Shown here one piece after another: positions 54,193 through 54,419 of a DNA stretch of 64,000 nucleotides (its first letter is position 1; every line of letters starts with the position of its first letter). The notes under the pieces were generated by a model that saw nothing but the letters and a program-made list of their open reading frames with translations, was not told the origin of the DNA and ran no database searches. The translations under genes and the position numbers were made by a program. The stretch is from assembly GCA_002773855.1 (NCBI GenBank), contig PEZY01000012.1:297613-361612 (forward strand), read 5' to 3'. The DNA is from Candidatus Buchananbacteria bacterium CG10_big_fil_rev_8_21_14_0_10_33_19 (GTDB lineage Bacteria > Patescibacteriota > Patescibacteriia > 2-01-FULL-39-33).

Positions 54193-54369
54193 TTATTTTT
54201 TTGTCCAGTCTTTAATAGAAATACCCAGTCCACTTTTTTTGACAATCACCTTTTGACCTTCACGCCATTTTAAATCTCTAATAATTTGAATTGGCACAGT
54301 GATAGTAAAACTAACACCTCGGCCAGTTTTACCAAGTTTTCTGATATTTTGTTTGTTTAATTTTCTCAT
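54193..54369 (-). CDS. AbrB/MazE/SpoVT-family (swapped-hairpin) DNA-binding protein, 58 aa
   Basis: MRKLNKQNIRKLGKTGRGVSFTITVPIQIIRDLKWREGQKVIVKKSGLGISIKDWTKK; under the ORF track's length cut-off. Confidence 0.55.
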   Translation of the reverse strand: MRKLNKQNIRKLGKTGRGVSFTITVPIQIIRDLKWREGQKVIVKKSGLGISIKDWTKK

Positions 54370-54389
54370 ATATTTTAGATAATTCTAGG

Positions 54390-54419
54390 TCCAGAGATAT
54401 CTCCGGAGATATCTCTGGA
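54390..54419. promoter_or_regulatory. Perfect 30-bp palindrome (likely operator) 20 bp upstream of the AbrB-like gene
   Basis: tccagagatatctccggagatatctctgga, checked base by base. Confidence 0.6.

Follow-up and report, generated by a model that had tools for sequence, protein, structure and literature searches.

What a gene of 58 codons does with the perfect 30-bp palindrome that lies 20 bp upstream of its start codon is the question raised by one locus of Candidatus Buchananbacteria bacterium CG10_big_fil_rev_8_21_14_0_10_33_19. The locus was analysed within a stretch of 64,000 nt (assembly GCA_002773855.1, contig PEZY01000012.1, positions 297,613 to 361,612 of the forward strand), hereafter the window, by whose positions all features are given. 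A first-pass annotation had proposed an AbrB/MazE-family gene behind an autoregulatory operator, encoding either a transition-state-type regulator of the genes downstream or an orphan antitoxin. We consider it probable, at roughly 0.7, that the gene encodes a minimal AbrB-fold protein which autoregulates through an array of three boxes, also limiting the genes behind it, and which is part of a Patescibacteria-wide family.

A conserved small gene and its family

The open reading frame (ORF) occupies 54193-54369 on the minus strand (ATG start, stop codon included) and its translation is MRKLNKQNIRKLGKTGRGVSFTITVPIQIIRDLKWREGQKVIVKKSGLGISIKDWTKK (58 aa), as first reported. It had been called unannotated, although NCBI lists the identical protein as hypothetical protein GW933_01880 (Candidatus Falkowbacteria bacterium); NCBIfam and PADLOC gave no match to it. 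Seven of the related loci, which we number L001, L002 and so on, are identical to the window across 577 nt (L002-L008) and therefore add no information. Compared with homologues that are 74-75% identical, the small gene shows 23-24 codon changes that are purely synonymous against 14 amino-acid changes, while the guanine-plus-cytosine (GC) content rises from 31% to 45-53%, a pattern expected under purifying selection on the protein. The small gene is thus real and conserved.

Conservation in relatives, which the first-pass annotation had left to be checked, is extensive. An exhaustive profile search returned 345 cluster representatives (50% identity) at E ≤ 1e-3, nearly all of 55-62 aa, with the family consensus MxRRKLxxxNIRKLTKxGxxSYxVTLPIExVRELxWRExQKVVVKKxGKKIIIEDWKK. 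From Patescibacteria genomes 80 family loci were fetched, spanning Saccharibacteria, Parcubacteria/Paceibacterota, Moranbacteria, Gracilibacteria, Falkowbacteria, Woesebacteria and others; these were retrieved with a narrower family alignment and are biased to the WRE[RK]QKVV subfamily. The contigs of L019, L026, L043, L047, L061, L067, L068 and L089 are titled as Gammaproteobacteria, Bdellovibrionales, Pacearchaeota or Methanosarcinales metagenome-assembled genomes, labels that are probably binning or labelling errors rather than true occurrences. A second copy of the small regulator lies within 5 kb of the first, as a tandem paralogue, in L024 (3560-3763), L057, L073, L076 and L088, and at least that of L024 has its own 12-bp array of the kind described below.

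The proposed membership of the AbrB/MazE family held through the family and a structural model, and not through the window protein taken singly. Alone, this protein scored 16.3 bits against Pfam PF04014 (MazE_antitoxin; cut-off 24.7, E = 0.0097), and a PDB sequence search with it gave spurious Runt and kinase matches only. PF04014 was matched, in turn, by 80 of 88 family members at E ≤ 0.01 (best E 3e-11), and the window protein matches the family profile, so that its membership of PF04014 follows by transitivity. A PDB search with the family profile placed mainly AbrB, MazE and Sso7c4-type chains on top, with marginal E-values of 0.025-0.5. In the profile alignment R10-K11 of the window protein align with R8-K9 of AbrB, which are DNA-contacting residues; R10 and K11 are at least 90% conserved in the family, R17 sits in the loop between the first two strands, and this β1-β2 loop is 4 residues longer than that of AbrB.

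An AlphaFold2 model built from a 101-sequence alignment (predicted local distance difference test, pLDDT, 85.7) has the order β-β-α-β-β, with strands at residues 12-15 and 20-23, a helix at 27-33 and strands at 41-46 and 49-54, that is, the β-hairpin, α-helix, β-hairpin topology of the monomer. The top Foldseek matches of the model were SpoVT (2w1t), MazE (1ub4; template-modelling score 0.73, root-mean-square deviation 1.5 Å), the N-terminal domain of AbrB (1yfb), VapB and Sso7c4, with probabilities of up to 1.00 and E-values that are weak because the domain is short. Because the window protein alone falls under the Pfam threshold, the swapped-hairpin signature is taken from the family and the predicted structure: the protein is modelled as a single domain of the swapped-hairpin (AbrB/MazE/SpoVT) fold and, from that fold, would be expected to form a homodimer.

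Three boxes within the upstream palindrome

The palindrome, TCCAGAGATATCTCCGGAGATATCTCTGGA, spans 54390-54419, separated from the ATG by 20 bp (54370-54389) as first reported. It is a putative operator core that occurs once in the 64 kb; with up to 3 mismatches tolerated, its like was still absent from all of 100 dinucleotide-preserving shuffles. The same letters double as a 12-bp tandem direct repeat (TCCAGAGATATC/TCCGGAGATATC), and on the gene strand they resolve into three 8-bp boxes spaced 12 bp centre to centre. Box 1 (CTCCAGAG, 54413-54420, minus strand) is in the 12-bp register and lies nearest the promoter; box 2 (CTCCGGAG, 54401-54408, minus strand) is the central one and is itself a perfect palindrome of 8 bp; and box 3 (CTCTGGAC, 54389-54396, minus strand) lies nearest the start codon. 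The box 2 sequence recurs at 12-bp spacing in L001 and L069, whose proteins have the motif RKLG[KR]TGRG in common with the window protein. Written out as TCCAGA-GATATC-TCCGGA-GATATC-TCTGGA, the array of the window has the same architecture as those of the family.

Further copies of the palindrome, which had been suggested as a route to a regulon, and a second CTCCGGAG array were absent elsewhere in the 64 kb. A metagenome scan with CTCCGGAGAYATCTC gave at least 120 matches; those listed were single chance hits, mostly from unrelated contigs richer in GC, and a family gene adjoined none of them. Rfam returned chance microRNA-type matches only for the palindrome. The possibility that a restriction system targeting GATATC or TCCGGA is involved was considered and set aside, as the window shows avoidance of neither sequence (17 occurrences against 16.8 expected, and 3 against 3.2, respectively).

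A 12-bp period upstream of the family genes

An array was scored where a self-repeat with a 12-bp period and a score of at least 10 lay no more than 120 nt upstream of the start codon. Such arrays preceded 38 of 85 family genes (44.7%), compared with 11 of 654 other ORFs in the same loci (1.7%), none of 761 random windows (0%) and 2 of 1700 shuffled sequences (0.1%), and several of the 11 control hits were the locus's own box standing before another gene or a tandem paralogue. Strong repeats (score ≥ 10) were present at 45 loci, and at 38 of these the best period was exactly 12 bp. Pooled autocorrelation over positions -70 to -1 peaked at a shift of 12 (0.437, against 0.306 in controls) and also at 24.

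Arrays hold 2-4 units between about -70 and -1, and these are mostly 12-bp palindromes. The commonest core is TACGTA, for example in AATTACGTAATT and AAATACGTATTT, with variants one or two steps away (TCAGTA, TAAGTA, TAGCTA, TATATA, TCCGTA and TCCGGA). In about one third of the family's arrays the units are directly repeated and show little dyad symmetry, as with AATTAATTCAGT in three copies or GTTCAGTAAC in two. The palindrome centred on CCGG, on which the first-pass annotation had dwelt, is therefore one instance of a box array with a 12-bp period, and it is the latter that is conserved. As a separate observation, the pooled autocorrelation (86 loci) has weaker peaks at 4, 8, 16, 20 and 28 bp, which points to units with a 4-bp substructure, for example AATT-ACGT-AATT.

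Box sequence follows the DNA-binding hairpin

The closest relatives (74-75% identical) carry ATCTCC..AGA arrays. In L001 (75% identical) this is ATCTCCGGAGACATCTCCGGAGATC, placed before the NYN gene that precedes the small gene; in L217 (74% identical) it is ATCTCCATAGAC / ATCTCCATAGAT / ATCTCTATACAT, as far from the ATG as the array of the window, and the array is non-palindromic. At about 50% identity, L069 still has three CTCCGGA boxes at 12-bp spacing and keeps the loop motif RKLG[KR]TGRG. Across 48 loci, box similarity correlated with protein identity over residues 9-27 (Spearman 0.31, Mantel p ≤ 0.0005) and not over residues 28-58 (r = 0.02, p = 0.38). The strongest single columns were residues 9, 15 and 19 (each p ≤ 0.002), in the β1-loop-β2 hairpin, which carries the DNA contacts in AbrB and MazE. 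Paralogues within one genome differ in their boxes, each having that of its own subfamily (TACGTA in L037, TTAAGTAA in L053).

Small regulons are implied by extra copies of a member's own array that stand before other genes of the same locus in L012, L013, L058, L088 and L091; members other than that of the window have 1-3 additional arrays within ±5 kb. In L088, a TspO gene has two copies of AATTACGTAATT 35 nt upstream, and the same pair also precedes a 188-aa gene. At both places, 7624-7645 and 8285-8306, AATTACGTAATTAATTACGTA is followed by an identical CCGGCGGGGAAAAAT, which, judged from the sequence, looks like a duplicated operator-promoter cassette; the loop of that member matches those of AATTACGTAATT-type proteins.

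Promoter context and proposed mode of action

A consensus -10 hexamer, TATAAT, lies at 54429-54434 on the minus strand, 8-9 bp upstream of box 1, and marks a putative promoter (P2). If it is used, the array would cover about +3 to +32 of the transcript. The hexamer lacks a good -35 and was missed by the promoter scan; a TATAAT likewise stands a few bp upstream of the array in L018, L029, L034 and L081. Where a promoter could be called (25 family loci), arrays began at a median of +1 relative to the best predicted one. Promoter-like sites in the region number 10, against a shuffle expectation of 6.2, a slight excess.

We propose that homodimers bind the three CTCCGGAG-like boxes which, 12 bp apart, make up the 30-bp palindrome between promoter and start codon, and that RNA polymerase would be blocked by boxes so occupied, which would lie at the transcription start or a little beyond it. 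In this way the protein would repress, rather than activate, limiting its own synthesis and that of three products encoded downstream, namely TspO, a membrane protein of 193 aa and a Pif1-like helicase. Each family member would have its own box sequence in the common 12-bp layout and would head an operon with variable cargo. The window gene itself would then be of an ordinary kind, a small autoregulated DNA-binding protein with a putative operator, and the autoregulatory site suggested by the first-pass annotation becomes very probable in the light of the shared family geometry and of the covariation between box and protein.

Several points weigh against this proposal. The single window protein scores under the Pfam cut-off, a clear array is present in just about 45-58% of family loci, and no regulon is visible for the window member because no second CTCCGGAG array occurs in the 64 kb. 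The covariation test cannot fully remove shared ancestry, although the lack of correlation in the C-terminal half speaks against ancestry as its source. Another promoter, TTGACA-16-TAATAT (10/12 matches; 54469-54496, minus strand), scores best among the full ones of the window, and if it were used the array would fall at +40 to +72; promoter calls are weak in this AT-rich DNA, and the distances from -10-like hexamers to the arrays of family loci are diffuse, with no sharp peak. The weakness of these promoter data makes repression an inference, and dimerisation, binding and co-transcription are likewise proposed. Finally, in a transcript the palindrome would pair into a stem of 13 bp capped by a loop of 4 nt (-20.6 kcal/mol, z -3.84), and no shuffled sequence was as stable.

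This last point supports a different explanation, in which the palindrome would act as RNA and independently of the protein, either as a stem-loop in the 5' untranslated region that stabilises the mRNA or attenuates translation, or as a bidirectional terminator. The palindrome would indeed be transcribed from the TTGACA-16-TAATAT promoter, and a scan for terminators on the plus strand marks it. However, no gene on that strand ends close by for which a terminator would be required, and no U run follows the stem on the gene strand. In L217 the 12-bp array sits in the same position without being palindromic and about one third of family arrays are poorly symmetric direct repeats, so that the 12-bp period is conserved and the hairpin potential is not, while the box sequence co-varies with the DNA-binding hairpin of the protein. 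For these reasons a DNA operator is preferred, and we consider an RNA hairpin unlikely.

It is also conceivable that the protein is a general, nucleoid-associated and chromatin-like one, comparable to archaeal Sso7c4 (2l66, 5itj), and that the repeats are bound by another factor or reflect unrelated promoter architecture. Like Sso7c4, the family consists of basic, single-domain AbrB-like proteins of about 55-60 aa that are abundant across the lineage, and many members are solitary, with no obvious target. Such a protein would not be expected to have arrays specific to the upstream regions of its own family, nor an array sequence that tracks its β1-loop-β2 segment, and the extra own-box arrays before genes of the same locus are the behaviour of a sequence-specific regulator with a small regulon. 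We regard this explanation as very unlikely, and continue with autoregulation through the box array.

Genes downstream and neighbourhoods in the family

The genes downstream on the minus strand are as the first-pass annotation had described them. The first, 15 nt downstream of the small gene at 53782-54177, encodes a TspO/MBR family membrane protein (PF03073, E = 5e-29). It is followed after 3 nt by the gene of a predicted 193-aa membrane protein (53197-53778) with no Pfam, NCBIfam or PADLOC match, and after a further 2 nt by that of a Pif1-like superfamily 1B (SF1B) helicase with a C-terminal helix-turn-helix (HTH) domain, HTH_40 (51548-53194). All three genes are probably co-transcribed with the small gene, and its control of the TspO, membrane-protein and Pif1 genes, which had been suggested earlier, is supported as probable. 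The 193-aa protein has a cysteine-rich C-terminal part (CLYCSY...YWCP), and a homologue of it, 65% identical, is encoded 1.7 kb from the family gene in L023.

Called genes were read around 9 other members, and ORF neighbours within ±5 kb were clustered in about 86 loci and annotated with Pfam. Neighbours vary from locus to locus. The small gene is usually the first in a string of genes on its strand, with a same-strand gene starting within 400 nt downstream, and often within 40 nt, in 66 of 81 loci. DNA methyltransferases account for about 12 of 65 immediate downstream genes (about 18%), some heading a whole restriction-modification (R-M) operon. The methyltransferase families near members were HsdM-type N6_Mtase (11 loci), N6_N4 (7), D12 and EcoRI-type (3), and the other recurrent cargo comprised RhuM-Fic/Fic (11 loci), NYN (6), RadC (4-5), HsdS (4) and GIY-YIG (4). 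The window copy adjoins no R-M gene and precedes TspO, the 193-aa protein and Pif1. On the strand of the small gene and downstream of it, a Pif1-like helicase gene is present in 4 cases (the window; L001, +436; L067, +146; L017, +3299), and TspO recurs near members at 4 loci (the window; L091, +36 nt; L088; L019); with counts this small and without a genome-wide background, both associations are suggestive only.

In two of these loci further features were seen. In L001 the 435-nt gap between the small gene and Pif1 (6220-6650), which stands where the window has its TspO and 193-aa genes, contains 3-4 G/C-rich hairpin repeats, for example CCCCTC-attgtttgaag-GAGGGG and CCTCCCCC-ttgtttgaa-GGGGGAGG. 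In L092 a gene at 5750-7213 on the minus strand encodes a 487-aa fusion of a LexA DNA-binding domain, an S24 peptidase and an N6_N4 DNA methylase, and relatives of its methylase part lie directly downstream of the small regulator in L023, L024, L053 and L088.

No toxin-like gene lies beside the window gene, as the first-pass annotation had noted, nor beside the 9 members with called neighbours, and the clustering of about 86 loci showed no recurrent PIN, MazF, Doc or HipA-type partner. An orphan type II antitoxin of the MazE/VapB/PemI kind, its toxin lost and the palindrome left as a relic of a toxin-antitoxin operator, would fit the fold, the Pfam family name, the label "antitoxin component of MazEF/PrlF" that some sources give to family members, and a palindrome just upstream of the gene, where toxin-antitoxin operators typically lie; the operator of E. 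coli mazEF, moreover, packs three sites for MazE dimers into 47 bp, the middle of which is a perfect palindrome (PMC4333400). This origin is nevertheless most improbable, because repeated toxin loss does not fit a family that is broad and well conserved (345 clusters) without a partner, because 58 aa of which the fold spans 12-54 (55-62 aa in the family) leave no C-terminal toxin-binding tail, and because the recurrent Fic/RhuM-Fic neighbours are proteins of 360-380 aa, mostly encoded upstream and in R-M islands.

On the other side of the gene, a GC-rich island at 54530-54700 (54% GC, against 32% in the window and 22% in adjacent intergenic DNA) sits between the terminator hairpin of a tRNA-Gln gene (54706-54744) and the promoter region of the small gene. 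Its minus strand ends in GGGAC-TTTTTTT. The island contains a GGC-GGAA-GCC hairpin followed by GAAGCA, which may be reminiscent of the apex of signal recognition particle RNA. The island had no Rfam match at E ≤ 10, and its fold stability was about that of shuffled sequences (z -0.79). Just upstream of the tRNA-Gln gene, a lysine-rich ORF of 35 aa (MAKTKRDPRAKVPKLKWREKAKGKQGTAGKYKMGK; 54832-54939, minus strand) is a Joint Genome Institute gene call in several assemblies and has no family match. An integrated island beside tRNA-Gln was considered and rejected, there being no tRNA 3'-end repeat and no compositional break.

Significance and comparison with known systems

To our knowledge, almost nothing is known of transcriptional regulation in the Candidate Phyla Radiation (CPR)/Patescibacteria, which cannot be cultivated on their own and in which recognisable regulators are very scarce. 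Literature searches yielded nothing on AbrB-like regulators in this group or on AbrB-fold controllers of R-M systems. The family appears to be one of minimal AbrB-fold leader regulators with co-evolving box arrays of 12-bp period, widespread in Patescibacteria and apparently undescribed. More tentatively, and with some doubt, we suggest that across the phylum each member has an 8-bp box of its own with a specificity set by β1-loop-β2, and that gene and array together form a portable, self-limiting promoter cassette which accompanies mobile cargo. If so, β1-loop-β2 specificity would provide a natural recognition code for the fold, whose choice of DNA sequence has proved difficult to pin down, and members would travel with horizontally mobile cargo (R-M, RadC, Fic, NYN, Pif1, TspO), which would cast the family as the AbrB-fold counterpart of the HTH controller proteins of R-M systems. 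The 58-aa protein and its 30-bp DNA site make a concrete, testable pairing, and the dozens of natural loop-box variants could reveal how the swapped-hairpin (AbrB/MazE) fold reads DNA, a question that AbrB left open. The label "MazE antitoxin" on the solitary small genes of this family is misleading.

Among known systems, MazE of E. coli (with Kis/PemI and VapB) is the nearest structural and architectural analogue. It has the swapped-hairpin fold, its gene stands directly behind its own operator, and the three sites of that operator closely resemble the three boxes found here. Unlike MazE, the window protein has neither a toxin gene nor a disordered C-terminal toxin-binding tail, its boxes are strictly 12 bp apart, and it would be a stand-alone regulator with varied cargo in the family.

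The N-terminal DNA-binding domain of Bacillus AbrB, Abh and SpoVT is homologous to the window protein, and AbrB is autoregulated. AbrB (about 94 aa) and SpoVT (about 178 aa) have C-terminal multimerisation or GAF domains, whereas the window protein has no residues beyond the N-terminal domain, and AbrB binds many sites without a clear consensus whereas the family here has crisp, repeated boxes. The suggestion of a transition-state-type regulator fails because the C-terminal domain is missing.

MraZ, the regulator of the dcw cluster in the AbrB superfamily, is also encoded by the first gene of its operon, behind regularly spaced short boxes: four GTG(G/T) boxes with 6-nt spacers, one "cradle" of the protein per major groove, and autoregulation (PMC12957436). 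It differs in having about 150 aa, two fused half-domains (UPF0040), rings of 8-12 subunits, a 10-bp period, direct repeats and a tie to dcw, where the window protein has 58 aa, a single half-barrel unit, a 12-bp period, boxes that are mostly dyad-symmetric in its family, variable cargo, and neighbours other than dcw.

Sso7c4 and the C56/C68 proteins of Sulfolobus plasmids and viruses are of similar size (48-60 aa), consist of a single, dimeric swapped-hairpin domain and were among the profile and fold matches. They are archaeal, however, Sso7c4 is described as a chromatin-like, weakly specific binder, and we know of no report of 12-bp operator arrays for any of them.

The controller (C) proteins of R-M systems, such as C.PvuII, C.AhdI and C.Esp1396I, are small and autoregulated; their genes precede the R-M genes, and their operators are tandem pairs of palindromic C-boxes lying upstream of the C gene itself. 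By analogy, they would be the nearest functional counterpart for the roughly one fifth of members that head methyltransferase or R-M operons (about 12 of 65 stand directly before such a gene or operon). C proteins have an Xre-like HTH in place of the AbrB fold, the window copy is not beside an R-M system, and the family regulator usually precedes the methyltransferase rather than the endonuclease. If the methyltransferase and R-M link holds, R-M in these organisms would be controlled by a fold different from that of the classical C proteins.

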